NCBI GenBank assembly: GCA_963775795.1
Contig: CAVZKC010000004.1
Span: 722,613-786,612 of the forward strand
DNA: 64,000 nt
Direction of reading: 5' to 3'
From: an uncultured Actinomycetes bacterium
GTDB taxonomy: Bacteria; Actinomycetota; Acidimicrobiia; IMCC26256; DASPTH01
Positions within the stretch are counted from its first letter, which is position 1. The number at the start of each line of letters is the position of its first letter. The notes below the pieces were generated by a model that worked only from the letters and a program-made list of their open reading frames with translations, searched no databases and was not told the origin of the DNA. Shown here piece after piece: positions 1,869-64,000 of the stretch. Made by a program: the position numbers and the translations under genes.

Positions 1869-3374
1869 GTGGGCCGAGCGGTCGTAGGCTTGGCGCCCGT
1901 GGACGGGTCGCCAGGGGAGCTCGAGCGGGCGCGGAGCCTGTTGCTCGGCGACGAGCTGGCGCCGATCGTCGACATGGTGCTGCAGTCGCCCGGCGCCGAC
2001 GAATACGAGGCCGCCACGGTGGAAGGAAGCATTCGGTTCCGCCGTGAGGGCGGCGCCTTCGACGTCGTCGAGATCACGGGGATCGACCCGCTCGCCGACC
2101 AGTCCCCCGCCGCGTTCGCCGGTCTCGCCGCCGAGCGCGCCGACCCGCATCCTGCGCGGGCGGACAATTCGTATCCGTACACGTTCGAGCAGGTCGCGCA
2201 GCTGTTCGACCACCCCGCCGCGCCCGACCTCTGCGTGGTCCACTCCGCCGACCACAACTGGGAGGACCAGGGCGGCCACCGGGGCGAACACGGCTCGCTC
2301 GGCATCGGGCAGGCCCGGGCGCCGTTCGTGGTCGCCGGCCGGGGGGTCCGCGCCGACGGGGTCGTGCCCCGCGCCGCGCGCCTCGTCGATGTCGCGCCGA
2401 CGATCGCCGCGCTGCTCGGCTGCGACGCGCCCGGCACCGACGGACGGGTGCCCGCCGACGGGCAGGCGCGCCGCGAGGCGCTCGACGGCGACCGGCCCCG
2501 ACAGGTGCTGGGATTCCTCTTCGACGGCGTGAACCCCAACGTCCTCTACGACATGGCCGCCGCGGGCGAAGCGCCCCACGTGCGCCGCCTGATGGATCTC
2601 GGCACGACCTACGAGTGGGGAGCGATCGCGTCGCTCCCCACGGTCACGCTCGCCAACCACACGACCATCCTCACGGGTCGGTGTCCCGGCCACCACGGGA
2701 TCCTCCACAACGCGTGGTACGACCGGGCCCGCGCCGAGCAAATCATCACGAACTCCCAGGCGACGTGGCCGTGGTCGATGCGCCACCTGTTCGACGGGGT
2801 CGAGACGCTGCACCACCGCGTGCACGAATCGGAGCCGGACTCGTTCACCGCCTCGGTGAACGAACCCTGCGACCCGGGCGCCGACTACTCGACCTTCGCC
2901 TTCCTCCGGGCCGGCGAGTCGCCCGCGCTCGCCGCGCATCCGGCGGCGCTGCCCCACACCACCGAGCGGTTCGTACGTCCCTCCAAGAGCTACGCGTGGT
3001 CGACGGCGGTCGACCACGCGTGCGTCGAGCAGGCGGTCGGCCTCTGGGAGGGTGAGCTGCGTGGGACGCGGTACCCGCGCCCGCGGTTCATGTGGTGCAA
3101 CTTCACGCTCACCGACGCCGCGTTCCACGAAGGCGGCCCGCATTCCGAGATCGCGGCGGCCTCGGTGCGCGACACCGACGCCCGGCTCGGCGAGATCCTG
3201 GCGGCGGTCGAGCGCACCGGCGCCTTCGACGAGACCGCGTTCGTGCTCGTCGCCGACCACGGGATGCAAGAGACGGACCCGACCGTGCGGGGAGATTGGG
3301 GGGTCGCGCTGCGCGCTGCCGGACTGACGTTTCGCGACGAGGGCTACGGCTTCCTGTACTTGAGTGACACCTGA
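1869..3374 (+). CDS. alkaline-phosphatase-superfamily protein (type I phosphodiesterase / nucleotide pyrophosphatase-like)
   Basis: Track ORF 1518..3374. Its 5' part is antisense to rplM, so the start is probably GTG 1869 or ATG 1974 (uncertain). AP/NPP motifs: [58 protein letters not shown]. Confidence 0.75.
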
Positions 3375-3381
3375 GGAACCG

Positions 3382-4496
3382 TCACACGCTCGTCCCCACC
3401 GCCTTCCCGACGAAGAACGTCACTGTCGCCACCGCCGCGCCGATCAGCGCCATGCGTAGTCCCGCGCGACCCGCGCGGCGACCGGTGAACACCGACGTGA
3501 CCGCGCCGGCGCCGAACAGCGCGAGGATCGAGAGCGTCGCCGCGACCACCGTCGGCGCCGTTCCGCTGCCGAAGAAGAACGGGACGACGGGGATCAGCGC
3601 GCCCAACCCGAACGCGACGAACGACGACACCGCCGCCACCCACGGCGAGCCCAGCTTCGTGGGATCCAGCCCGAGCTCCTCACCGCGAGGGTGTCGAGCG
3701 CGATGTCGTCGTTGGCCATGATCCGATCGACGAGCGCGCGTGCGGCCGTGGGCTCGATGCCCTTCGCCCGGTAGATCAGCTCGAGCTCGGCGCGCTCCTC
3801 CTCGGGGAACGCGCGGAACTCCTCGCGTTCGATGCGCAGCTCGTTCTCGTAGAGCTCGCGCTGCGAGCGCACCGAGATCCACTCCCCCGAGGCCATCGAG
3901 AAAGCGCCGGCGACGAGCCCCGCGATGCCGGCCAGGAGCACGATGCTGTTGTCGGTGGTACCCCCGGCGATGCCCATGACCAGCGAGAAGTTGGAGACGA
4001 GCCCGTCGTTGACCCCGAACACCGTGGCGCGCAGCGCGCCCCCCACGCCCGCCCGGTGCCGCCCCTCGGAGCGGGCGATGCGCCCGCCGGCGGGGATCCC
4101 CTGCATCGCCGCGATCGTGCGACCGGCAGCCTGCTCCTGTGCAGCCATCGCGTCGGTGGCCTCGTCGTCTTCCCGGTAGCGCCCCGCCTCGGCCGCTTCG
4201 GTCCGCAGCATGATCGGAAGCACGGCTTCGGTGCCGAAGCGGCGAGCGAGCGCGCAGAGCACCTTGACGCGAAACGGCGTGCGCGGCCGCACAGTCTCCT
4301 CCCCCGCGGCGCGCAGCAGACCGGCCCAGTGCTCGGCATGGCGCTCCTCGGCTGCCGCGAGCTGGAGGAAGACGCCGCGGCGCGAGTCGTCCGCGTAGCG
4401 CGCGAGACCGCGGTAGAGCTCACCACCGGCGATCTCGTCCGCCCACATCTCGTGGATGTGCGCGAGACGCTTGCGCTCGGTCGGATGCGTCGTCAT
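3382..4496 (-). pseudogene. ferritin/rubrerythrin-like domain fused to a VIT1/CCC1-family iron/manganese transporter, frame-disrupted as assembled
   Basis: Two track ORFs lie in different minus frames. ORF 3594..4496 carries AAEERHAEHWAGLL, then GALRATVFGVNDGLVSNFSLVMG, and ends at DIALDTLA. ORF 3382..3882 carries GEELGLDPTKLGSPWVAAVSSFVAFGLGALIPVVPFFF and the last TM helices. The frames meet at about 3683-3690. Confidence 0.8.
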
Positions 4497-19775: not shown

Positions 19776-20696
19776 TCAGTCCTCGTCCCCGTGGAACTTT
19801 GGAGCCTCGTGGTGCTGCCGCGTGCGGCGCTCGATCTCCTCTTCCTCGGCCAGGAGACGCTCCAGCTCGGGGTCGGCCTCCTTGACGAGCGGGCTCGACT
19901 CCTCGCCCACCTCGTCGGGCGCGGTCTCCACCGGCGCGGCCTCGGCTGCCGGGCGCCGCCGGCCCCCGCCGGCGCTGACGACCCGGCGCGTCGGGCCCTG
20001 GCCCGACGTCTCGCCGACCGCCATGGCGGCCTCCTTCGAGATCTTGTCCTCGGCCGCCGACTTGTAGGGCAGGATCTCGCCCTTGTAGATCCAGACCTTC
20101 ACGCCGATGCGTCCGAACGTCGTGCGCGCCTCTGCCTGGCCGTAGTCGATGTCGGCCCGCAGCGTGTGGAGTGGCACGCGGCCTTCGCGGTACCACTCCT
20201 TGCGTGACATCTCTGCGCCGCCGAGCCGTCCGCTGCACTGGACCCGGATGCCTTGCGCGCCGGCCTTCATCGCCGTCTGCACGGCACGCTTCATCGCCCG
20301 GCGGAACGAGACGCGCCCGGTCAGCTGGTCGGCGACCCCCTGCGCGATCAGGGTGGCGTCGAGCTCGGGCTGCTTGATCTCCTGGATGTTGAAGTGGATC
20401 TTCGGGTTCCCGGTGATCTTGAGCAACCCGGCCCGGAGGCGATCCGCCTCCGCGCCCCGCCGCCCAATCACGATCCCGGGCCGCGCGGTGTAAACGTCGA
20501 CCCGCAACCGGTCACGCGTGCGCTCGATCTCGACGCGGCTCACCGCGGCCCGCTCCAGCTGGCGCTTCAGGTAGTCGCGGATCTTCCAGTCCTCGATCAG
20601 GCTCGTGCGGTACTCGTCGTCCTCGGCGAACCAGCGCGACTTCCAGTCGGTGGTGATCCCGAGCCGGAAACCGTAGGGATTGACCTTCTGGCCCAT
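19776..20696 (-). CDS. rpsC: 30S ribosomal protein uS3 with a long acidic C-terminal extension
   Basis: ATG 20696 lies inside the 651-aa track ORF 19776..21731. [23 protein letters not shown] and [31 protein letters not shown] are present. About 90 extra residues end in [24 protein letters not shown]. Confidence 0.95.
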
Positions 20697-21356
20697 TAGT
20701 GCTCCGATCCTTCGGTCTCGGCGCGCTCGTCGTCCTCGTCCGAATCGGCGGAGGCCTCGGCTTCGTCGATCTCGACCTCGGCCGGCTGCTCCGCTTCGTC
20801 CTCGTCGTGCGCCTCGACGAGGACGTCGGCCTCGTCGAGCACCTGACTCGTGATCGTGATCGTGATCGTGATCGTGATCGTGATCGTGATCGGCCGCCGC
20901 GGCACGACGCGATGCGGCGACTCGACGCCGACGGCTCACGCGTGACGGGCCGCCGGCTGCTGCCTCCCGCCGGCGCCGCCGCTCGAGCTCGTCGTCGCCG
21001 AACCGAGCGACCATGATCGTCACGTGACTGGTGCGCTTGCGGATGCGAGTGCCGCGGCCACGCGCCCGGGGCCGCCACCGCTTCATGGTGGGACCCTCGT
21101 CAGCGAACGCGCGCGACACGTAGAGCTCGTCCTCCGGGATGGAGTCGTTGTGCTCCGCGTTCGCGATCGCCGAGTCGAGCAGCTTCATCACCGCGTCGGC
21201 GGGGCCACGCTCGCAGAACCGGAGGATCTCGCGCGCCTCCACGACGTCCTTGCCGACGATGAGGCCCAGGACCTGGCGCACCTTGGTGGGTGACGTCCGG
21301 AAGTGCCGGAGCCGCGCGGCAGTCTCGCGTTCGGGAGCGACGGTGCGAGTTGCCAT
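20696..21356 (-). CDS. rplV: 50S ribosomal protein uL22, with core and acidic tail in different frames as assembled
   Basis: ATG 21356 forms a TGATG overlap with the rpsS stop. Core sequence: [29 protein letters not shown]...[14 protein letters not shown]. The tail [15 protein letters not shown](IT)7SQVLDEADV...ETEGSEH lies in the +1 frame. It ends at TAA 20698-20696, overlapping the rpsC ATG (TAATG). Confidence 0.8.
20851..20892 (-). repeat. perfect hexanucleotide microsatellite (TGATCG)7, equal to (GATCAC)7 on the coding strand
   Basis: Counted directly: seven tandem TGATCG units with no mismatch, each holding a GATC site. It lies inside the rplV 3' extension. Confidence 0.97.
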
Positions 21357-21634
21357 CAGCGACGACTCGATCGTTCCTGGCCCGCGTGGAACCGGAAGGT
21401 GCGGGTGGGCGCGAACTCGCCGAGCTTGTGGCCGACCATCGCCTCGGAGATGTAGACGGGCACGTGCTTGCGGCCGTCGTGCACCGCCAGGGTGTGCCCG
21501 ACCATGTCGGGGGTGACCGTCGATCGTCGTGACCACGTCTTGATCACCTTGCGCTCGTTGGCCGCGTTCATCGCGTCCACCTTCTTCTGGAGGTGGTCGT
21601 CGACGAACGGGCCCTTCTTCAGGCTGCGCGGCAT
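21356..21634 (-). CDS. rpsS: 30S ribosomal protein uS19
   Basis: Track ORF of 92 aa with [15 protein letters not shown] and [29 protein letters not shown]. Confidence 0.97.
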
Positions 21635-21637
21635 CCG

Positions 21638-22474
21638 TTACCTCCGAGCACCGCGGCCACGGCGGCGGCGAATGATGAGCTCGTCCGACTTCTTGCCCTT
21701 CTTGCGGGTGCGACCTTCGGGCTTGCCCCACGGCGACACCGGGTGGCGCCCGCCCGAGCTCTTGCCCTCGCCCCCGCCGAGCGGGTGATCGACCGGGTTC
21801 ATGGCCACGCCGCGCACATGGGGGCGCTTGCCCTGCCAGCGGGCCCGGCCCGCCTTCCCGACCTTCACGAGGCCCGCCTCGGCGTTCCCGACGGAGCCCA
21901 CCGTGCCCCGGCAGTCGATCGGGACGCGCCGCATCTCGGTCGAGGGGAGCCGCAGGGTTGCGAACTGGCCCTCTTTCGCGACCAGCTGGATCGCGGCGCC
22001 CGCGCCCCGCCCGAGCTTGCCGCCCGCACCCGGCTTCAGCTCGACGTTGTGGAGCACGGTCCCCACGGGGATGTAGCGCAACGGGAGGGCGTTCCCCGGA
22101 CGGATCTCCGAGCCCTGGCCGCTCTGCAACAGGTCGCCCACGTCGACGCCGGTCGGCGCCAGGATGTAGCGCTTCTCGCCGTCGAGGTAATGGAGCAACG
22201 CGATGCGGGCGTTCCGGTTGGGGTCGTACTCGATCGCGGCGACCTTGGCGGGCACGCCGTCCTTGTCGCGGCGGAAGTCGACGAGGCGGTACTTCTGCTT
22301 GTGGCCGCCACCACGGTGGCGCGAGGTCATGCGACCGTAGGAGTTACGACCGCCCGTGCGCGGCTTGGGCTTGGTGAGCGACCGCTCCGGCTTGTCGCGG
22401 GTGATCTCCGAGAAGTCGGAGACGGTCTGGAACCGCCGACCGGGGCTGGTGGGCTTGCGCTTGCGGACCGGCAT
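21638..22474 (-). CDS. rplB: 50S ribosomal protein uL2
   Basis: ATG 22474 lies inside track ORF 21638..22819. [18 protein letters not shown] and [31 protein letters not shown] are present. Confidence 0.97.
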
Positions 22475-50412: not shown

Positions 50413-51270
50413 TCAGTACTGGCCCGAACGCAGGCGCCGCACGCGGTCGGCGGTCGGTGGGTGGGTGCTGAACAGGTTCGCGAAGTTGACCTTGCGCCCG
50501 GTCAACGGGTTCACGATGTACGCCGTCGCCTGCGCCGGGTTCACGTCCATCGGGACCTGCTTGGCGTAGGCCTCGATCTTCTCGAGCGCGCGGGCGAGGG
50601 ACTCACCGTCCTGCAGGAGGTGCGCGCCGCTCGCGTCGGCCTGGTACTCGCGCGAGCGCGAGAGGGCCATCTGGAGGAGGCCCGCGGCGATCGGCGCCAG
50701 GATCGCCATCGCCAGCACGCTGAACACGTTGCCGCCGTCGTTGTCCCGTCCACCGCCACCGAACATGGCACCCCACATCGCCATGCGGGCGACGAACGTG
50801 ATGCCCATCGCGACCGCCGCCGCGACCGAGCCGATGAGGATGTCGCGGTTGCGGACGTGGGACAGCTCGTGGGCGAGCACGCCGCGGAGCTCGTCGTCGT
50901 CGAGGACCTGCAGGATGCCCTTCGTCACGCACACCGCGGCATGGTCGGGGCTACGGCCGGTCGCGAAGGCGTTGGGCTGCATCTCGGGCGACACGAAGAT
51001 CTTCGGCATGGGCATGTCGGCCCGGCGCGTCAGGTCTTCGACGATCGCGTAGACCTGGGGCAGCTCGTCACGGGTTGCGGGCACGGCTCGGGCCGCCTTG
51101 ATGGCGAGCTTGTCGCTGAACCAGTACGAGCCCCCGACGAAGAGGAGGCCCAGGATCAGCCCGATCAGGAGGCCGGTCTGGCCACCGACGATGACGCCCA
51201 CACCCATGAACAAGGCGCCCAGGAAGGCCAGGAGGATCGCGGTCTTGAATGCGTTGCGCATCGTTCTCAC
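50413..51270 (-). CDS. htpX: M48-family zinc protease HtpX
   Basis: Track ORF of 285 aa with PNAFATGRSPDHAAVCVT, the HExxH motif VLAHELSHVRNRD, and REYQADASGA. Confidence 0.93.
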   Translation of the reverse strand: MRTMRNAFKTAILLAFLGALFMGVGVIVGGQTGLLIGLILGLLFVGGSYWFSDKLAIKAARAVPATRDELPQVYAIVEDLTRRADMPMPKIFVSPEMQPNAFATGRSPDHAAVCVTKGILQVLDDDELRGVLAHELSHVRNRDILIGSVAAAVAMGITFVARMAMWGAMFGGGGRDNDGGNVFSVLAMAILAPIAAGLLQMALSRSREYQADASGAHLLQDGESLARALEKIEAYAKQVPMDVNPAQATAYIVNPLTGRKVNFANLFSTHPPTADRVRRLRSGQY

Positions 51271-51769: not shown

Positions 51770-52257
51770 TCACTCGTAGTAGCCAGAGTGGATGTAGAGG
51801 CTGGGGACGCCGGCGGTTCGGAACATGTCGACGTTGCGCTGGTCGTCCTCGATCGCGAGGCGGAGCTCGAAGCCTTCGGCGAGGAGCTCATCCATCGACG
51901 CCCGCTTGAACTCCCGGGACATCCCGTACTCACCGAACGGCCGCATGACGAGCAGGTCCCAGCGGATCTCGTAGCGCCGGAGCCAGGCCTCGGTGAGCTC
52001 GTGGACGGAGAACGGGCGGGCGGTCAGCAGGACGACGCGCAGTCCCTGATCGAGGAGGTCGAGCAGCACCTTCATCTCGTCGATGACCGGATCATCGCCG
52101 CACGCCGCGAAGAATCCCCGCCAGTCGCGCCGCGGCTCCTCGAGATAGTGCTGACGCCCGGCGGCGTCGGACAGCACGCCGTCGATGTCCACGATGACGG
52201 TCGGGCCCGGCTCGACGGGGCCGTTCCGCCACGTCCAGTGGTCGGGGCCGGCCGCCG

Positions 52258-52261
<4 letters not shown>
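51770..52261 (-). CDS. HAD-superfamily phosphatase (small, capless type)
   Basis: Last 163 codons of track ORF 51770..53587. ATG 52261 overlaps the acs stop (ATGA). HAD motif I is [11 protein letters not shown]. Motif II is VVLLTARP. An acidic motif [10 protein letters not shown] is also present. Confidence 0.7.
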
Positions 52262-54216
<1,955 letters not shown>

Positions 54217-54378
54217 AGCGATTGCACCCCCACGCGTACGGACCGGGTGAGACGAGACGCTATACCCGGCCCCTGAGGCCTTGATCCGCTGGGGGCTCAG
54301 CCCGCCGAAACCGACTGAACTCGTGAGTTGCGGCCAGAAGCGCGGATAACTGTCATACCGGCATGAGATGCTCGATCG

Positions 54379-55533
54379 GTGAGCACGTGTCTTGCCACCG
54401 AGTTCGACTACCGGGACCGGGTCGACGAGCTGCGCTGCTGCGAGACCTCGTGGTTGGCGGCCCGGCGCGCCGAGTTGATCCGGGAGCAGCGGCGGCTGCG
54501 GGTGGAGGAGCTCGCGGTCACCCGGGTGCTCGACGAGCGCGGCGCGCTCAACGACTCGACCGCCGGCGCGGACGGCGTCTCGCAGCGGACGGTCCGGGAG
54601 ACGGTGGAGACCGCCCGCGCGCTGGAGTCGCTCCCCCGCGTGGCGGCCGCCGCGCACGAGGGCGCGTTGAGCGGCGAGCAGCTCGGCGCGGTCGCCCAGC
54701 TCGCCGATGACACGACCGACGCCGAATGGGCGCGCCGGGCGCCGCAGGTCGCGCCGGCAGACCTTGCCCGGCTGGCCAGGACCCGACGCGAGCCCACGCT
54801 GGAGGAGTCACGGGCTCGGTATGCCGCGCGGAGCCTGCGGATGTGGTGGTCGCCCGAGCGCGGGATGCTGAACCTGCGGGGCGAGCTCCCCGACCTCGCG
54901 GGCGCGAAGTTCGAGGCCACGATCACCCGGATGATCGAGCGGATGCGCCCGCCCAAGGGCGAAGCGTGGGACACCCGGGAACGCCGTGGCGCGGACGTGC
55001 TCGTCGCGCTCTGCGACCTCGAAGGCGTGGTCGAGCCGGCGATCGCGGCGACGAAGCCGCTGCTCGTGGTCGAGGTGCCCCTCCGCGGCCCGGCCGAGAT
55101 CGCCGGCATTCCCCTCCCGGAGGCCATGGTCGAGCAGCTGCGCGCCAGCGCGAGCATCGAGACCACGGTCGTCGACGATCACGGCGTCCCGCGCGTGATC
55201 GGCTCGCGTACCTCCGCACTCTCGCCCAAGCTGGCCCGCGCGATCCTGCTGCGCGACGGCCACTGCCGGGTTCCCGGCTGCGAGGTCCGCCACGGCCTCG
55301 AGATCCACCACCTCGTTCCTCGTTCGTGGGGTGGGAGCGACGACCAGTCGGGGCTCGCCGCGGTGTGCACCACCGCCGGGCACCACCAGATGCTCGTGCC
55401 GCACGGGCCGTGGGCACTGGTCGGCAATCCGAACCGGCCCGACGGCATACGACTGGTCCGCTATCAAGAGCTCACCGCCGAACAAGCCCGCGGCTACGGC
55501 CTGCCGCCGCCACCGGGGCGACGACGACGATGA
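54379..55533 (+). CDS. HNH endonuclease with an N-terminal DUF222-type domain (13E12-repeat-like selfish gene family of actinobacteria)
   Basis: Track ORF of 384 aa with a GTG start. The HNH core is [48 protein letters not shown]. The N-terminal helical region is [28 protein letters not shown]. Confidence 0.85.
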
Positions 55534-55540
55534 CCGACCG

Positions 55541-56737
55541 TCACGTACTCGCGCGGGTGCCGACCGAGAACACGAGCACCCGGTGCGCGCCGAGGCCGGC
55601 CGGGTCGAGGAGAGCCGCGGCCTCGCTGACACGGCTGCGATGCCGGAGCGCCTCCAGGTCGCCGACGTGCGCACGCTCGTCCCAGGCCGCGCGGGCCTCG
55701 TCGACGAGGTCGTCGATGCCGAGGCCGCGCAGCCAGTCCGCTTGCGATGCATTCGACTGGAGGGTCATGCCGGCGGTCGAAGCCGCGTGCACGAGGAACT
55801 CGACCGGCAGGTCGATCGTGATGTCCTGGCCACCAGGGTCGTCGAGCGGCGAGCCGCCCCGGTGGTGGCCCCGGTAGGTGCGGAGCCACCCGCTCACGCC
55901 CCGCTGCAGCAGTTCGGCGGCCGGAGCCGCGTAGTCGAGCACGATCAGCGCGCCGTCGCGCAGGATCTCGCCGCACTCCTGGAACCAGTCGCGCGCGGCC
56001 AGGGGAACTGGGAGGCGCGCGCCGACCGGCACCGCTTCCGCCCCCGCCGCCCCCGCCGCCAGGGCCGCCGCCACCTCGAGCTCGGGGGCGGCGGGCACCG
56101 TGACCTCCGAGAAGCCGCCGTCCTCCGACGCGACCCGCACCTCGGCCCAACCGTCCACCGTGCGCTCGACCACGCGGAACGGCAAGTTGTCGAGCAGCTC
56201 GTTGGCGAGCACGACTCCTGTGCACGCCACCGCCGGCAAGTCCGCGAGCGAGGTCGCGATCGGCCCGACACCGGTGGCGGGCGCCCGTCGCAGCTCGTCC
56301 CCCGGATCGTCGTCGGGATCGTGTGTCACCGGCCCCAGCGCGTCCTCGCCCGGCTCGAGCACGAGGAGCTCCCGCTGGGCTTCGCGGAGCTCGGCCGACC
56401 GTTCGACCAGTACGTAGCGCAGCGCGGGCGCGCACTCGGGACCCGCGGCGAGGAAATCGGCGGCCAGGCGGCCCCGGCCCGCGCCGGCCTCGACCACGAC
56501 GAACGGATCAGGTCGTTCGAGATCGCTCCAGACCCGATCGACCGCGCGGGCAACCAGTGCCCCGAACAGCGGACCGACCTCGGGGCTCGTGACGAAGTCG
56601 CGGCCCGCGCGTCCGGCGCCGTGCCCGCGCTCGAAGAAGCCGCCCGGTCCGTAGAGCGCGGTGTCGACGAAGGCGTCGAACGGGATCGCGCCCTCCCGCC
56701 GGATGCGCTCCACCAACAAGTCGGCGAGCGCGGTCAT
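55541..56737 (-). CDS. SAM-dependent methyltransferase, MidA / NDUFAF7 (DUF185, COG1565) family
   Basis: Track ORF of 398 aa with YGPGGFFERG, RDFVTSPEVGPLFGALVA and the SAM motif I VVVEAGAGRGRLAADFL. It is on the same strand as nuoN, 27 nt after its stop. Confidence 0.8.
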   Translation of the reverse strand: MTALADLLVERIRREGAIPFDAFVDTALYGPGGFFERGHGAGRAGRDFVTSPEVGPLFGALVARAVDRVWSDLERPDPFVVVEAGAGRGRLAADFLAAGPECAPALRYVLVERSAELREAQRELLVLEPGEDALGPVTHDPDDDPGDELRRAPATGVGPIATSLADLPAVACTGVVLANELLDNLPFRVVERTVDGWAEVRVASEDGGFSEVTVPAAPELEVAAALAAGAAGAEAVPVGARLPVPLAARDWFQECGEILRDGALIVLDYAAPAAELLQRGVSGWLRTYRGHHRGGSPLDDPGGQDITIDLPVEFLVHAASTAGMTLQSNASQADWLRGLGIDDLVDEARAAWDERAHVGDLEALRHRSRVSEAAALLDPAGLGAHRVLVFSVGTRAST

Positions 56738-56764
56738 CGTCCCGATCCAAACCGGACGGGTCGG

Positions 56765-58226
56765 CTACGCGGGGAACGCGAGCTCGCCGATGCGGGCGAA
56801 CACCTGCGGATAGACGCCGACCACGACCACCACCGCGGCGGTCAGGCCGAGCGCCACCGTGAGGGCTGCCGGCACGCGCACCGGGCCGGACTCGGCCGCC
56901 GGCTCGTGGAACCACATCTTGCGCGCCACCGCCGCGTAGTAGAAGAACGCGATGACCGAATTCACGGCCGCGACGACCCCGAGCACGACCGCCGGCGCGG
57001 TGTGCGCGTCGAACACCGCGCGGAACATCACGAACTTTGCGAACCAGCCGGCGAAGGGCGGTACTCCCGCGAGCGAGAACATGAAGATCGACATGAGCAC
57101 GGCCAACCCGGGCGCGGTCTGTGCCCAGGCCGGAGTACGAGTCGATCTCCGCCGAGTGGGTCCGGCGCGCCACCGCCATCACCACCGCGAACGCTCCCAG
57201 GTTCATCGCGCCGTAGATGAGGAGGTAGATGAGCACCGCTTCGAAGGCGGACTGCGCTGCCGACCCGTCACCCGCGACCGCGAGGGGAACGAGGATGAAC
57301 CCGCCCTGGGCGATCGAGGAGTAAGCGAGCATGCGCACGATGTTGGTCTGGCGCAACGCGACGAGGTTCCCGTACGTCATCGACGCGGCCGCCAGCACCC
57401 ACAGCATCGGCTCCCACGAGTCCTGCGACGGGAAGAAGCCCACCTTCACGATGGTGAGCAGCGCGACGAAGCCACCCGCCTTGGAGGCCACCGAGAGGAA
57501 GGCCGCCACCGGGGTCGGCGCACCCTCGTAGGTGTCCGGTGTCCAGAAGTGGAAGGGCACCGCGCTGATCTTGAAGGCGAAGCCGCCGATCGTGAGGAAG
57601 ATGGCCACGGCCAGTAGCGGGCTGGTGCCGACGTCGCGGATGTGCACGTTGATGGCGGTGAGGAGCGTCGAGCCCGCCTCTCCGTACACGAACGACATGC
57701 CGTAGAGCATCACCGCGGTGGACAGCACGCCGATCAGGAAGTACTTGATCGCGGCCTCGTTGGATTTCTCGTCGTGTTTGCGCCAACCGGCGAGCACGAA
57801 CGTCGGCAACGTGATCGTCTCCAGCGCCACGAAGATCGAGATCAGGTCGCGGGCCGACGCCATGACCACCAGCCCGAGCACCGAGGTCAGGAGCAGGAAG
57901 TAGAACTCGCCCTGGTAGTAGTCGCCTTCGCCGATGTAGTCGCTCGACATCAGGAGCGCGACGTAGGCGACCACGAGGAAGAAGCCCTGGAAGGCGAGGG
58001 CGTATTCGTCGACGACGAACCCGCCGTGGAACATCACGCGCGTCGACCCGTCGGCCGCGAGCGTGATCACCGGGATCAGGGCCGCGAGGACGCCGACGGA
58101 CGCGAGGCGCGACGACGCGAAACGCGACCGCTCCGGCCAGACGAGGTCGGCCACGAGCACGACCAGCGCCGCGACGGAGAGGATGATCTCCGGCGCGAAC
58201 GCGTGGAAGTCGATCGATGGAGTCAC
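56765..58226 (-). pseudogene. nuoN: NADH-quinone oxidoreductase subunit N, frame-disrupted as assembled
   Basis: GTG 58226 abuts the nuoM stop. Track ORF 56508..58226 is NuoN-like up to AEIDSYSGLG and then turns into Arg-rich nonsense. The missing C-terminal helices, (QTAPGL)AVLMSIFMFSLAGVPPFAGWFAKFVMF...VYPQVF, are in ORF 56765..57106. The junction is at about 57125-57135. Confidence 0.9.
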
Positions 58227-59777
58227 CTACAACGCCCTCGACATCTGCGACACGAGGTGCGTCACCGTCGGGTCGGTGATCTTGAACAACAGGTTGGGGT
58301 AGATGCCGAGCACGAGGATGAGCACGAGGAGCGGCGTCCACGCGATCCACTCGGGCCCGTGGACGTCGTGGATGTGCTCGTGCTCGTATTCCGGCTTCCC
58401 CTTCCCCATCGCCACCCGCTGGAGCATCCAGAGCAGGTATCCCGCCGCGAGGACCGTTCCGACCGCGGCGATGACCATGTACGTGCGGAACGTCCACAGC
58501 GTGCCGTCGAGGCCCCCGGTCAGGCCGAACGGCAGCTTGGGTTCGTAGGCGGACAGGATCGCCGGGAATTCACCCCAGAACCCGGCGAGCCCGGGAAGGC
58601 CGAGGGAGGCCATGGCGCAGAAGCCGAGGATCCAGCCGAGGTGGGGCGCCTGGGTCAGCATGCCTCCGAGGCGGCTCAGCTCGCGGGTGCCGTAGCGCTC
58701 CTGCACGGACCCGGCCACGAAGAAGAGCATGCCGGTGATGAGGCCGTGCGCCACCATGCCGAAGACGGCGGCATTGATCCCGAAGTCCGTGAGCGTCGCG
58801 ATGCCGAGCATCACGAAGCCCATGTGCGCGATCGAGGAGAACGCGATCAAGCGTTTCATGTCGGTCTGCGCGAGACAGCACAGGGCGCCGTAGATGATCC
58901 CGATCACCGCCAACAACCCGATCCACGGAGCCCACGACTGCGCGGCTTCGGGCAGGAGCGGGAGGGCGATGCGGATGAAGCCGTAGGTCCCGAGCTTCAG
59001 GAGGATGGCGGCCAGTAGCACCGAACCCACCGTGGGAGCCTCGGTGTGCGCATCGGGCAACCACGTGTGGAACGGAAACATCGGCACCTTGATCGCGAAC
59101 CCGAGGAAGAGCCCGGCGAAGAGCAGGATCTGCGTGCCGCGGACGATGCCGTCCCCGTGGAGCTCGGACAATCGCACGATGTCGAACGTCTGCTCCTTGC
59201 TGAGGAAGAAGATCGCCAGGAAGCTCAACAGCATCAACGCCGACCCGAACAGCGTGAAGAGGAAGAACTTGATCGACGCGTACTCGCGGTTGGGGCCTCC
59301 CCACACGCCGATCATGAAGAACATCGGGAGCAGCACGATCTCGAAGAAGATGAAGAAGAGGATCAGGTCCTCGGCCACAAACGTGCCGTTCATCCCGACT
59401 TCGAGCAGCAGGATGAGCGCGAGGAACGCCTTCGGGTTGTGCGGCTCGGGGAAGTGGTTCCACGAGTAAACGACCGCCATCACGGTGATGAGCATCGAGA
59501 GGATCAGGAGCGGCAGCGAGATCCCGTCGATGCCGACGTGGTAGCGGCTGTTGATCACGTCGATCCACGACTCGTTGGCGCTCAGCTGCAAGCCGTGCTT
59601 GTCGTAGTCGAACCGGGCCAGGATCCCGAGGCCTACCAGAAGCGTCAGGAGGGTGGTCGACAGCGCCACCACCTTGATGAGTCGCTCCTCGACCCTCGGG
59701 ATGCAGAGCACGACGGCCATCCCGATCAACGGGATGAAGATCGCCAGGGTCAGTGCCCAGTCGTCGAACCAGTCCAT
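58227..59777 (-). CDS. nuoM: NADH-quinone oxidoreductase subunit M
   Basis: Track ORF of 516 aa with LPMFFMIGVWGG, FAIKVPMFPFHTWLPDAHTEAPT and IAFSSIAHMGFV. Confidence 0.95.
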   Translation of the reverse strand: MDWFDDWALTLAIFIPLIGMAVVLCIPRVEERLIKVVALSTTLLTLLVGLGILARFDYDKHGLQLSANESWIDVINSRYHVGIDGISLPLLILSMLITVMAVVYSWNHFPEPHNPKAFLALILLLEVGMNGTFVAEDLILFFIFFEIVLLPMFFMIGVWGGPNREYASIKFFLFTLFGSALMLLSFLAIFFLSKEQTFDIVRLSELHGDGIVRGTQILLFAGLFLGFAIKVPMFPFHTWLPDAHTEAPTVGSVLLAAILLKLGTYGFIRIALPLLPEAAQSWAPWIGLLAVIGIIYGALCCLAQTDMKRLIAFSSIAHMGFVMLGIATLTDFGINAAVFGMVAHGLITGMLFFVAGSVQERYGTRELSRLGGMLTQAPHLGWILGFCAMASLGLPGLAGFWGEFPAILSAYEPKLPFGLTGGLDGTLWTFRTYMVIAAVGTVLAAGYLLWMLQRVAMGKGKPEYEHEHIHDVHGPEWIAWTPLLVLILVLGIYPNLLFKITDPTVTHLVSQMSRAL

Positions 59778-59796: not shown

Positions 59797-61881
59797 TCAG
59801 GTGTTGGCCAGGACGAGGATCAGGCTGAGCAGACCGATCGCCCCGAACAGGAACAGCGCGTACCGCTGCACTCGACCGGATTGCAGATAGCGGAGGAGCC
59901 CGCCGGTGTCGCCCGTGACGTTGGCGAGCTCGTTCACCGCGCCGTCGACCCCCCGCTGGTCGACGACGCCGTAGGTGAACCGGCCGGCGCGCTCCGCCGA
60001 CGTGCCCACCGCGTTGACGAACCGGTCGATCACGTTCTGGTTGAGCCAGTACGCGGCCTGCGCGATCGGGCCCTTGATCGACGCGACGACGACGCCCGTG
60101 TAGAGGTCGTCCAGGTAGTACTTGTTCTCGAGGAACCGGTAACCGGCGCGTGCCCCGGCGTTGCGCTGCGTGAGCCCGCGGAACGGACCGAGCTCCTCTC
60201 GACGGAACAGGAGATAGCTGACGAAGCCGATCGCCGCCACAGCCAGCGAGACGGACACCACCGCGAGCGTGGTGTCGAAGTCGGCGTGGACGAGCGTCGG
60301 GAACTGCGTGGTGGGCTCGACCCACTCCTTGAACTTCTCGATCCCGAACGGCGCCGCGTTGAACAGGCCGGCGAACACCGAGAAGAACGCGAGGATCACG
60401 AGCGGGACCGTGATCACCCGCTCGGACTCGTGCGGCTGGCCGTGGCCGCGGTACTCGCCGAAGAACGTGAGGTAGACGCAGCGCGTCATGTACGCCGCGG
60501 TGAGCAGCGCGCCGATGAGCCCGATGATGAGGAACGTGTCGTAGCCACCCTGGCTGGCCGTGGCGAGGATCTCGTCCTTCGACCAGAAGCCGGCGAGCGG
60601 GAAGATCCCGGCGAGCGCCAGGGTGCCGATGATGAAGGTCCAGAACGTGATCGGCATGTGCTTGCGCAGGCCGCCCATGTCGCTCTTCATGTCGAACGAG
60701 TGGTGCGCGCCCGAGTGGCTCACCGATCCGGCCCCGAGGAAGAGCAGGGCCTTGAAGAAGGCGTGCGTGAAGAGGTGGAACACCGCCGCCGTCCACGCGC
60801 CGACACCGAGCGCCATCACCATGTAGCCGAGCTGGCTGATCGTCGAGTAGGCGAGCACCTTCTTGATGTCGCGCTGGACGAACGCGAGCAGCGCCCCGAT
60901 GAGGATGGTGATCCCGCCGATGAGCGCCATCGCGTTGACGCCGCCGTTGGCGATCGAGAAGCCCTCGTAGAACACGGGATAGAGGCGCACGCCGAGGTAG
61001 ACGCCCGCGACCACCATCGTCGCCGCGTGGATGAGCGCCGAGACGGGCGTCGGGCCGGCCATGGCGTCGGGCAGCCACGTGTGGAGCGGGAATTGGCCGC
61101 TCTTGCCGATGATGCCGATGAACAGGCAGGCCGCGCCCGCGAGGAGGAGGCCGTGGTTGGCCCCCGGGCTCAGGGCGTACTCGTTGATGCCCCCGATGCT
61201 GAACGTCCCCGCGGCGAAGAACGTGATGATGATGCCGATCATCAGGCCGATGTCGCCGGTGCGGGTCGTGAGGAACGCTTTGAGCGCCGCGTCGGAGTTC
61301 GGCTTCTCCTCCCACCAGTGACCGATCAACACGAAGGAACAGAGGCCCACGCCCTCCCAGCCGACCAGGAGCTGCAGCGTGTTCTCGGACACGACGAGGA
61401 GCAGCATCGACGCGGTGAAGAGACTGAGCATCGCGTAGTAGTGCGTGAAGCGGACGTCGCCGCGCAGATATGCCGTCGAGTAGACGTGCACCAGCAGCGA
61501 GACCAACGAGACGACGAACATCATCATCACGACGAGACCGTCGACCCGCGTGCCGACTGTGATCTCGACGCCGCCGTTCTGCCACCACGTGATCGTGTTG
61601 ACGACCGGTTTCACCACCACTTCCGTGCCGTGTCCGCCGACTTCGGACGCGCCGATCAGCGCGCGGGCGATCCCGTGGACGCCACCCTCGGCATGGCCAC
61701 CTTCCGCCGAGTTGACCCGGTCGATCCACTGCACGACCGCGACGCACGACAAGAGGAACGACGTGCCGACGGCCGCGATCCCGAGGCCCGATCCCTTGTC
61801 GGGGAAGCGCTTGCCGAACAGCAGGATCGCGAAGAACGACAGCGCGGGGATGGCCGGAATGATCCAGGCGTGCTCGAGCAC
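59797..61881 (-). CDS. nuoL: NADH-quinone oxidoreductase subunit L
   Basis: Track ORF of 694 aa with a GTG start. GWEGVGLCSFVLIGHWW, GKSGQFPLHTWLPDAMAGPTPVSALIHAATMV and AYSTISQLGYM are present. Confidence 0.95.
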   Translation of the reverse strand: MLEHAWIIPAIPALSFFAILLFGKRFPDKGSGLGIAAVGTSFLLSCVAVVQWIDRVNSAEGGHAEGGVHGIARALIGASEVGGHGTEVVVKPVVNTITWWQNGGVEITVGTRVDGLVVMMMFVVSLVSLLVHVYSTAYLRGDVRFTHYYAMLSLFTASMLLLVVSENTLQLLVGWEGVGLCSFVLIGHWWEEKPNSDAALKAFLTTRTGDIGLMIGIIITFFAAGTFSIGGINEYALSPGANHGLLLAGAACLFIGIIGKSGQFPLHTWLPDAMAGPTPVSALIHAATMVVAGVYLGVRLYPVFYEGFSIANGGVNAMALIGGITILIGALLAFVQRDIKKVLAYSTISQLGYMVMALGVGAWTAAVFHLFTHAFFKALLFLGAGSVSHSGAHHSFDMKSDMGGLRKHMPITFWTFIIGTLALAGIFPLAGFWSKDEILATASQGGYDTFLIIGLIGALLTAAYMTRCVYLTFFGEYRGHGQPHESERVITVPLVILAFFSVFAGLFNAAPFGIEKFKEWVEPTTQFPTLVHADFDTTLAVVSVSLAVAAIGFVSYLLFRREELGPFRGLTQRNAGARAGYRFLENKYYLDDLYTGVVVASIKGPIAQAAYWLNQNVIDRFVNAVGTSAERAGRFTYGVVDQRGVDGAVNELANVTGDTGGLLRYLQSGRVQRYALFLFGAIGLLSLILVLANT

Positions 61882-61883
61882 CG

Positions 61884-62183
61884 TCAGCCCCTCATCTCGT
61901 CGACGTTGTCGAGATCGACGCTGTGCGAGTTGCGGTAGATGAGCAGGACGATCGCGAGACCGACACCTACCTCGGCCGCCGCGATCGTGATCACGAAGAG
62001 GGCGAACACCGCGCCCTCGACCGAGCTCCGGAACGCGGAGAAGGCGATGAGGTTGATGTTCACCGCGTTGAGCATCAGCTCGATGCTCATGAGCACGAGC
62101 ACCGCGTTCTTCCGGGCAAGCACGCCGTACACACCGGTGCAGAACAGGAAAGCGCCGAGGATCAGGAACTGGTTGAGATGCAT
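61884..62183 (-). CDS. nuoK: NADH-quinone oxidoreductase subunit K
   Basis: ATG 62183 forms a TGATG overlap with the nuoJ stop, inside track ORF 61884..62765. LMSIELMLNAVNINLIAFS and AAAEVGVGLAIVL are present. Confidence 0.95.
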   Translation of the reverse strand: MHLNQFLILGAFLFCTGVYGVLARKNAVLVLMSIELMLNAVNINLIAFSAFRSSVEGAVFALFVITIAAAEVGVGLAIVLLIYRNSHSVDLDNVDEMRG

Positions 62184-62686
62184 CAGTCCCTCCGCGCGAT
62201 CACGACGGCGCCCACGAGCGCGGCGAGGAGCAACATCGAGACGACCTCGAAGGGCACGAGGTAGTTGGTGAAGATGCTGTTGGCCACGTGGTCGGCGCTG
62301 CCGATGCGGACGAGCCGGTCCTTCATCTCGATCTTGTCGCCGCCGTAGGCGTCGACGACGAGCGCGGTGACGACACCGAACAGGAAGAGCGAGACGACGG
62401 CGGACGCGACCCGCTGCGAATTGTCGAGCGGCCCGGTACTTCGCATGGGCGCGTTCGTGAGCATGATGCCGAAGAGAAACAGGATCACGACCGCGCCGAT
62501 GTAGATCAGCACCTGTACCCAGGCGACGAACTCCGAGGCGAGCAAGATGTACTGCGCGGCGATGCCCGCGAGCGTGACCACGAGGAAGAGCGCGGCGTGC
62601 ACCACGTTCTGCGACCGGACCACGCCGATCGCTGCCCCCGCGATCGCGACCGCGAGAATCCAGAACGCGATGTTTTGTGCGACCAC
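62183..62686 (-). CDS. nuoJ: NADH-quinone oxidoreductase subunit J
   Basis: Track ORF of 167 aa with VVHAALFLVVTLAGIAAQYILLASEFVAWVQVLIYIGAVVILFLFGIML. Confidence 0.9.
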   Translation of the reverse strand: MVAQNIAFWILAVAIAGAAIGVVRSQNVVHAALFLVVTLAGIAAQYILLASEFVAWVQVLIYIGAVVILFLFGIMLTNAPMRSTGPLDNSQRVASAVVSLFLFGVVTALVVDAYGGDKIEMKDRLVRIGSADHVANSIFTNYLVPFEVVSMLLLAALVGAVVIARRD

Positions 62687-62701: not shown

Positions 62702-63184
62702 CTACTTCTTTTTCGCCTCGGCGCCGATTTCGAGCGGCTCGGGCTCGGGCACCGTCTCCATCCACTCACCCAGCTTCCGCTTGTCGTGCAGCAGCCGGGC
62801 GATGTTCGACTCGCTGTACTCGTACTCCGGGCTCCAGAACAACGCGTCGAACGGGCACACCTCCACGCAGATCCCGCAGTACATGCACAGGGCGTAGTCG
62901 ATGTCGAAACGGTCGAGCACGCTGACCGTCCGCTCGCGGCCGCCCTCCCGGCGCGGCGGCCGCTTCTCCTTGTGCCCCTCGATGTAGATGCACCAGTCCG
63001 GGCATGACCGCGCGCACAGCATGCAGACCGTGCAGTTCTCCTCCTTCAGCGCGATGACGCCGCGGGCGCGCGGCGCCGGGTCTTCGCGCTCGTGGGGATA
63101 CTGCACGGTGACCGCAGGCTTCAGCATCGTCTTGAACGTGACGCCGAGGCCCGAGATCACGCCGGGAAGCTTCGGTCGAGCCAT
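62702..63184 (-). CDS. nuoI: NADH-quinone oxidoreductase subunit I (2x[4Fe-4S])
   Basis: ATG 63184 forms a TGATG overlap with the nuoH stop, inside track ORF 62702..63808. The two ferredoxin motifs are [12 protein letters not shown] and [12 protein letters not shown]. Confidence 0.95.
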
Positions 63185-64000
63185 CACGCTGCAACTTTCA
63201 GGATGCCGGTGAGGAGGATGTTGGCGAGCCCGATCGGGATCAGCACCTTCCAGGCCAGCGCCTGGAGCTGGTCTTCCCGCAGGCGCGGATACGTGAAGCG
63301 CACCCAGAACATCAGGAAGGCGACGAGCATCACTTTGGCGAACAGCACGAAGGGGCCGAGCAGGCGCATCACGCCGATGTCGCTGACGAACGGCAGCGTC
63401 CAACCTCCGAGGAACAGCGTCGCGGCGAGCGCGGCGAACGCGAACGCGGTGCCGAACTCGCCGATGAAGAAGAAGAGGAACCGGAACCCGGTGTACTCGA
63501 CCATGTAGCCGGCGACCAGCTCGCTCTCGGCCACGGGCATGTCGAACGGCGTCTGGGTCAGCTCCGCCTGCGACGCGACGAGGAACAGCGCGAAGCCGAC
63601 GAACTGCGTGAGGATGAACGGGTTGCCCAACCCACTCCACCCGAAGATCGCGCCGTCGGCCTGGGCCGCCACGATGCCCTGCAGGCTCATCGTGCCCGCC
63701 TGCACCACGACACCCACCACCGCCAACAGCAGCGGCAGCTCGTAGGCGATGAGCTGCGCGGCCGCACGCAGCGCCCCGAGCAGCGAGAACTTGTTCGCGC
63801 TCGCCCAACCGGCCATCAACACGCCGACGACCGACAGGCTCGACACCGCGAGCGCGTAGAACACGCCGACGTTGAGGTCGCGCACGATCAGGTCGGGCCC
63901 CGCGGGGATCACGAGGAACACGAGGAACGTGGAGATCACGACGACCGCCGGCGCGAACGCGAACACGCGCCGGTCGGCCTGGGCCGGCATCACGTCTTCC
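63184..64000 (-). CDS. nuoH: NADH-quinone oxidoreductase subunit H, C-terminal part (gene runs off the right edge)
   Basis: Track ORF 63184..63993 starts at an internal Met, and the frame stays open to position 64000. [38 protein letters not shown] and [12 protein letters not shown] are present. Confidence 0.93.

Follow-up and report, generated by a model that had tools for sequence, protein, structure and literature searches.

Why would a gene of the family that methylates an arginine of mitochondrial complex I stand at the end of a nuo operon in an actinobacterium, and what would its product do there? The question is raised by a 64,000-nucleotide (nt) stretch of DNA, here called the window, from an uncultured member of the Acidimicrobiia (assembly GCA_963775795.1, contig CAVZKC010000004.1, positions 722,613 to 786,612). 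The minus strand of the window carries, in order, the 3′ part of nuoH, then nuoI, nuoJ, nuoK, nuoL, nuoM, nuoN, and midA, the last encoding a protein of the MidA/NDUFAF7 family (Table 1). The answer that we favor, and that we regard as moderately probable, is that midA encodes an operon-borne arginine methylase of NuoD, which serves as a maturation factor of an 11-subunit complex I-like enzyme.

Judged from profile matches and from the predicted fold, membership in the family is secure. The protein matches Pfam PF02636 (Methyltransf_28, formerly DUF185, COG1565) with an E value of 3e-41 and 142 bits against a cutoff of 23.3, over residues 61 to 326 and profile positions 1 to 245 of 249; as a sequence match, this is far beyond chance. 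A search of the 398-amino-acid (aa) protein against NCBIfam matched no model. Among sequences in the Protein Data Bank (PDB), the matches were 4F3N (a Burkholderia COG1565 protein, E = 2.6e-26), 1ZKD (the DUF185 protein of Rhodopseudomonas palustris, 2.9e-16), and 5ZTZ (Dictyostelium MidA, 2e-10). An AlphaFold2 model built from a 25-sequence alignment has a mean predicted local distance difference test (pLDDT) score of 92.5 and a predicted template modeling (TM) score of 0.91, with predicted disorder only at residues 137 to 150 and the last four. Foldseek aligned this model over full length with 4G67 (E = 2.4e-27, TM 0.74 to 0.78), 5ZTZ and 5ZU0 (TM 0.75 to 0.77), and 1ZKD (TM 0.72 to 0.79), for an overall range of 0.72 to 0.79, and generic methyltransferases came next at TM scores of ≤0.35. 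Both the seven-β-strand core of S-adenosylmethionine (SAM) methyltransferases and the family-specific C-terminal domain are present in the model. The preliminary description of this DNA had assigned the gene to DUF185/COG1565; the two strings that it quoted, GRAGRDFVTSPEVGPLFGALV (= RDFVTSPEVGPLFG) and DPFVVVEAGAGRGRLAADFL (= VVVEAGAGRGRL), are both found in the translation of the 398-aa open reading frame (ORF), and Pfam profile, motifs, and fold all bear the assignment out.

The motifs themselves suggest, as far as sequence can, an enzyme with no sign of inactivation. They comprise RDFVTSPEVG (residues 46 to 55), VEAGAGRG (82 to 89), LVERS (110 to 114), ANELLDN (178 to 184), DYA (268 to 270), and QDIT (304 to 307). 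Across 25 diverse relatives, the DFxTSPE segment, the GxGxG SAM loop, the acidic residue of LVERS, ANELLDN, DY(A/G), and QDIT are invariant or nearly so; these cofactor and family motifs align with those of 4F3N, 1ZKD, and 5ZTZ and are retained by alphaproteobacterial homologs of just 24 to 26% identity. Residues that stay invariant with the alphaproteobacterial homologs included are D47, T50, S51, G85, G87, G89, E112, N179, E180, D183, D268, Y269, D305, and T307. Many of these related proteins are already labeled NDUFAF7 by the JGI pipeline. A separate feature of the protein is an acidic insertion of about 30 residues (HDPDDDPGDELRRAPATG...; residues 137 to 165, approximately positions 56243 to 56329) between strands 2 and 3 of the methyltransferase core. 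The insertion is partly disordered (pLDDT of <50 at residues 137 to 150) and is confined to the window protein and the relatives closest to it, being absent from distant members of the clade and from the alphaproteobacterial homologs.

The proposed function follows the chemistry described for this family. NDUFAF7 is the enzyme that methylates an arginine of NDUFS2 in human cells, and NDUFS2-Arg85 is the sole demonstrated substrate of the family; symmetric dimethylation of the HRGxE motif has been demonstrated for the human and Dictyostelium enzymes only (PMC3829151, PMC9006661). In the bovine enzyme, the arginine of this motif is Arg85 of the 49-kDa subunit, which lies 3.7 Å from cluster N2 and is symmetrically dimethylated (PMC3750175, PMC8042128), and the mark could serve assembly or redox tuning (PMC8042128). 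Symmetric dimethylation of the equivalent Arg65 of Nqo4 in Paracoccus denitrificans was shown in 2013 (PMC3750175) and was seen by cryo-electron microscopy in 2024, in a 2.3-Å structure of complex I whose authors state that the mark is unreported in other bacteria (PMC11522691). A review adds bioinformatic and structural evidence that alphaproteobacterial homologs methylate NDUFS2 (PMC9006661). In Thermus thermophilus, the position equivalent to Arg85 is a threonine (PMC3750175, PMC8042128). Among relatives of the window, GYMHRGYEKL, with arginine at the methylated position, occurs in 57/57 NuoD proteins of the linked operons.

The type of operon was likewise judged from relatives, as the window itself ends in nuoH. 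In all 57 relatives that hold both genes, nuoD adjoins nuoH; the gap between them (median, 18 nt; at most 329 nt) leaves no room for nuoEFG. The gene tables of two relatives (L001 and L002) read nuoA-B-C-D-H-I-J-K-L-M-N-midA, with Complex1_49kDa directly before NADHdh. The operon is therefore very probably of the 11-gene nuoABCDHIJKLMN type, and the "nuoA-N" operon of the preliminary description needs correction, as nuoE, nuoF, and nuoG do not lie between nuoD and nuoH in any of the 57 relatives. Its naming of NuoD, the NDUFS2 ortholog, as the protein modified is in keeping with the Arg85 equivalent found in every linked NuoD; its statement that no function is assigned to the bacterial members of the family has been overtaken by dimethylated Arg65 of Nqo4 and by the evidence reviewed for the alphaproteobacterial homologs. 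Complex I-like enzymes of 11 subunits, without the NADH-oxidizing module, occur in many phyla, Actinobacteria included (PMC3144371). These "ancestral" enzymes (Moparthi and Hagerhall, 2011, PMC3144371; D. hafniense, PMC11238625) share with the relatives of the window the gene set nuoABCDHIJKLMN without nuoEFG; the 2011 survey mentions no methyltransferase (PMC3144371).

The evidence that ties midA to this operon is the conservation of its junction with nuoN. In the window, the nuoN stop codon (TAG, 56765 to 56767) and the midA start codon (ATG, 56735 to 56737) lie on the same strand, in agreement with the 27 nt initially reported between the two genes. A consensus scan of positions 54200 to 58400 for sigma-70 promoters and intrinsic terminators found none in the spacer, a scan that is uninformative in actinobacterial DNA of 69 to 74% G+C. 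For the comparison with other genomes, one genome per GTDB species was scanned, and the best 80 of at least 588 relatives were kept (46 to 66% identity). Where the titles of these 80 loci name a class, it is mostly Acidimicrobiia; most others name only Actinomycetota or Actinomycetes. Genes for nuo subunits, acs, and the HAD phosphatase were placed on the loci by tblastn, and loci with >300 nt upstream of midA were taken as informative (n = 79). In all 79 of these species-representative loci, nuoN lies directly upstream of midA on the same strand; a lack of conserved linkage in relatives, which the preliminary description had named as a result that would count against it, was thus not what we found. 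The median gap from nuoN stop to midA start, estimated for 70 loci, is 28.5 nt, with 35 of these loci at ≤30 nt and 61 at ≤100 nt. The junction extends to more divergent members: a locus whose midA product is 40% identical (L084) reads nuoD-H-I-[DUF4178, PspA, PspAA]-J-K-L-M-N-midA with a 24-nt gap between nuoN and midA, and another (L089, 41% identity) reads nuoL-M-N-midA. Same strand, short spacer, and adjacency across diverged genomes all hold for midA as a member of the nuo unit, from which we infer co-transcription on sequence grounds, and the linkage speaks for a functional connection within the Acidimicrobiia.

Taken as a mechanism, the favored reading would run as follows. The last gene of nuoABCDHIJKLMN-midA would encode an active SAM-dependent protein arginine methyltransferase of the MidA/NDUFAF7 type, which would be produced together with the complex and would bind NuoD during assembly of the Q-module. 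There it would dimethylate the arginine of HRGYEK, the counterpart of bovine 49-kDa Arg85 and of P. denitrificans Nqo4 Arg65, which is expected to pack against cluster N2 of NuoB. Dimethylation would, in turn, stabilize the NuoD-NuoB interface and tune N2.

Several observations weigh against this reading. The NuoD of this genome, the proposed target, lies outside the window, as do nuoA, nuoB, and nuoC. The target arginine is also present in Escherichia coli as Arg249 of NuoCD, where it is unmodified (PMC3750175, PMC8042128), so that its presence is necessary and not diagnostic. Identity amounts to 20 to 22% with Dictyostelium MidA and R. palustris 1ZKD and to 30% with the uncharacterized Burkholderia COG1565 protein, values that do not establish orthology to NDUFAF7. 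As for the junction, >300 nt separate nuoN from midA in 5/70 loci, and the four wide-gap loci examined (1.1 to 3.5 kb) hold unrelated ORFs between the two genes, some of them on the opposite strand; by eye, these ORFs resemble a histidine kinase, an ECF sigma factor, and a GNAT acetyltransferase. A divergent member, L085, lacks any nuo neighbor. Finally, the linkage is seen within one class, in which the whole nuo-midA-acs-HAD block is syntenic, so that plain inheritance may account for some of the conservation.

Of the competing explanations, the one that survives best, though we consider it unlikely, is that midA encodes an active methyltransferase co-expressed with nuo whose substrate is something other than the NuoD arginine: another subunit, an electron-input partner standing in for NuoEFG, or a molecule other than a protein. 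At 20 to 22% identity to characterized MidA, the protein is a distant member of its family, nearer to the Burkholderia COG1565 protein (30%) than to the Dictyostelium and Rhodopseudomonas proteins (20 to 26%), and its insertion is not found in other members. The Burkholderia thailandensis protein (4F3N/4G67), the closest solved relative, is an uncharacterized structural-genomics target for which we know of no substrate and no nuo linkage. A 2025 study reported DNA methylation in E. coli expressing the MidA of Wolbachia (PMC12455994). What favors NuoD over these alternatives is that NDUFS2-Arg85 is the one substrate demonstrated for the family (PMC3829151), that its equivalent is invariant in every linked NuoD protein, and that the gene neighborhood points to no alternative substrate.

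A second explanation, which we consider quite unlikely, is that gene order was inherited with no functional coupling, midA being simply the next gene of a block consisting of nuo, midA, acs, HAD-PNKP, and htpX. Synteny of the downstream genes is consistent with this: acs and HAD_PNKP lie downstream of midA on the same strand in most related loci (acs in 71/80), and the 80 loci resemble one another in gene order and sequence as members of one lineage do. The few loci with genes between nuoN and midA point the same way, as does the one alphaproteobacterial locus examined, that of the Rhodopseudomonas homolog (1ZKD type), which reads lgt-midA-Cu-oxidase_4 (pgeF-like) with no nuo gene within 10 kb. 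However, the two junctions of midA differ in how well they are kept. Whereas nuoN adjoins midA in every informative locus, acs lies within 400 nt of midA in just 47/80, is displaced by an HNH gene in the window, and is absent from L084, so that the nuoN-midA junction is clearly tighter than that between midA and acs. The nuoN-midA junction survives at about 40% identity where acs is gone (L084 and L089), and it occurs in "Candidatus Actinomarina" with different downstream genes (bioRxiv 10.1101/2021.02.01.429150). It would also be a remarkable coincidence for midA to be paired by chance with the one complex on which its family is known to act.

It is very unlikely that the protein acts mainly as a NuoD-binding assembly chaperone with methyl transfer dispensable or absent, since, although NDUFAF7/MidA makes direct contact with NDUFS2 at an early stage of assembly (PMC3829151, PMC9006661) and R121 mutants of Yarrowia lipolytica still assemble complex I, showing that assembly has no absolute need of this side chain (PMC8042128), a methyltransferase-deficient mutant fails to rescue in Dictyostelium (PMC9006661), and the SAM-binding and family motifs, invariant in some 25 diverse acidimicrobial sequences and in the alphaproteobacterial ones, argue for retained catalysis.

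The favored role of midA can be set against systems already described. With human NDUFAF7 and Dictyostelium MidA (5ZTZ, 5ZU0), the window protein shares PF02636, the two-domain fold, the DFxT(S/A)PE, GxGxG, and ANE..D motifs, an association with the same enzyme family, and, in relatives, the target arginine in the partner NuoD. In contrast, identity is 20 to 21%, the eukaryotic protein is encoded by a separate nuclear gene rather than in a bacterial nuo operon, the partner complex here would lack the NADH-oxidizing NuoEFG module, and the methylase activity and substrate are predicted. The alphaproteobacterial MidA homologs (R. palustris 1ZKD and the presumed methylase of P. denitrificans Nqo4) are likewise bacterial and share family and fold with the window protein; in P. 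denitrificans, dimethylation is found on the counterpart of the NuoD arginine (PMC3750175, PMC11522691). These homologs differ from the window protein in their identity of 22 to 26% and in a complex I of 14 core subunits.

The nearest match in gene arrangement is a unit of "Ca. Actinomarina" comprising heliorhodopsin (HeR), an 11-subunit nuo set, NDUFAF7 (K18164/PF02636), htpX, and pspE; Bulzu et al. (2021) call NDUFAF7 an accessory component of the 11-subunit complex and report that the same genomes also hold a 14-subunit complex I (bioRxiv 10.1101/2021.02.01.429150). Both units belong to the class Acidimicrobiia and consist of nuoABCDHIJKLMN followed by a PF02636/K18164 gene with htpX nearby. 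The differences are that midA and htpX are separated here by acs, HAD_PNKP, and an HNH gene and that the region before nuoA, where a heliorhodopsin gene might be sought, falls outside the window. The arrangement of an 11-subunit nuo set with NDUFAF7 is thus already in print for "Ca. Actinomarina," and the present survey extends this single-order report to the class. As family, substrate class, and gene arrangement have all been described, no new kind of biology is involved and a specialist would find little surprise; it is a sound comparative observation, solid but modest.

Within that frame, a methylase gene that consistently closes the nuo operon throughout the class is good comparative evidence for a MidA-NuoD partnership outside the mitochondrial lineage, and it places that partnership in a complex without an NADH module. 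A wider claim, which we put forward only tentatively and think rather doubtful, is that dimethylation of the N2-proximal NuoD arginine is not confined to mitochondria and alphaproteobacteria and serves, across the Acidimicrobiia, as a maturation step that the operon of the NuoEFG-less 11-subunit complex itself encodes. If so, the modification would belong to the ancient Q-module, independently of the NADH-oxidizing module, and where a 14-subunit complex I is also present, the methylase may serve the 11-subunit enzyme only, tuning N2 for a donor other than NADH. The preliminary description had gone further on two points. It saw in the linkage support for an ancestral role; among the loci surveyed, the linkage comes from a single class, and the Rhodopseudomonas homolog is not nuo-linked, so that ancestry to the family is not shown. 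It also saw a tractable experimental system, which is doubtful for lineages known mostly as uncultured metagenome-assembled genomes (MAGs) when P. denitrificans is already a genetic model for complex I (PMC8115037). What the locus does offer is a defined 12-gene cassette (11 nuo genes and midA), which could be expressed heterologously or followed by proteomics in cultured Acidimicrobiia.

Table 1. Coordinates of midA, the nuo genes, and neighboring features in the window
Feature	Position	Strand	Remarks
midA/NDUFAF7-family (PF02636, COG1565) class I SAM-dependent methyltransferase gene	55541..56737	-	398 aa, ATG start
nuoN-midA spacer	56738..56764	-	27 nt, 5'-CCGACCCGTCCGGTTTGGATCGGGACG-3' on the minus strand; weak purine-rich GGA/GGGA stretches ahead of ATG
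nuoN	56765..58226	-	Split in two ORFs by an apparent 1-nt insertion; two Proton_antipo_M pieces; tblastn pieces q4-371, q358-487
nuoM	58227..59777	-	516-aa ORF; tblastn with L001 NuoM, q1-516
nuoL	59797..61881	-	694-aa ORF; tblastn q1-691
nuoK	61884..62183	-	
nuoJ	62183..62686	-	
nuoI	62702..63184	-	
nuoH, 3' part only	63184..64000	-	Gene runs past the window end; tblastn q81-350 of 351
DUF222/HNH endonuclease gene	54379..55533	+	Convergent, between midA and acs; Pfam DUF222 4.5e-10, weak HNH match
acs	52258..54216	-	
HAD_PNKP-type phosphatase gene	51770..52261	-	4-nt overlap with acs
htpX-like Peptidase_M48 gene	50413..51270	-	

The survey of related loci yielded several further observations. 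Five loci (L016, L021, L023, L047, and L054) show nuo-midA-acs synteny at 51 to 58% identity and are filed as MAGs of Burkholderiales, Sphingomonadales, Bifidobacteriaceae, Rubrobacter, and Acidobacteria; these are probably binning or labeling errors in the public records. We considered counting them as independent occurrences of the linkage and rejected this, as synteny typical of acidimicrobial loci at that level of identity speaks against it. The unlinked divergent member (L085; protein P0247) was considered as the tip of an unlinked clade; a protein search from it gave only relatives of about 40% identity, the named ones acidimicrobial, and it was set aside as an orphan. For two other proteins (P0233 and P0260), the contigs are too short to reveal gene context, and their 36-aa upstream fragments are unlike NuoN C termini. 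A curious arrangement was seen in L084, where genes for DUF4178, PspA_IM30, and PspAA (positions 2557 to 4205 of that locus) form a phage-shock/membrane-stress module between nuoI and nuoJ, within the complex I-like operon.

Downstream of midA, the nuo-midA unit of this genome is bounded by the convergent HNH gene, whose stop codon lies 7 nt (55534 to 55540) from that of midA. An environmental contig of 98% identity (L083), which reaches just 120 nt upstream of midA, carries the HNH gene as well, whereas the gene tables of L001 and L002 lack it at this position; it has the appearance of a recent mobile insertion. A Peptidase_M48 gene also lies further downstream in L001, L002, and L084.

Two apparent single-base shifts bear on the quality of the sequence. 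In nuoN, positions 57116 to 57125 of the minus strand contain one extra base, GGC[A]CAGACC, and all relatives aligned have one base fewer in this stretch. Nine single-gap alignments place the extra base there, and its deletion restores ...SYSGLGQTAPGLAVLMSIF.... Were the frameshift real, NuoN would be truncated and ribosomes would pass the midA start in another frame; the insertion is probably an assembly error. The second shift lies in the ribosomal protein genes rplV (L22) and rpsC (S3), which are apparently fused as one 651-aa ORF (19776 to 21731, minus strand) with a shift near 20850 to 20890. This second apparent single-base indel, in the tail of rplV, argues that the sequence carries assembly errors, and because rplV is essential, we judged decay of the operon a less likely cause of the nuoN frameshift. 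Past a (GATCAC)7 repeat, encoding (Asp-His)7, the L22 frame becomes arginine-rich; in the +1 frame, a plausible acidic L22 tail follows instead, ending in a TAATG that overlaps the rpsC start. The (Asp-His)7 repeat in the tail of L22 is itself unusual.

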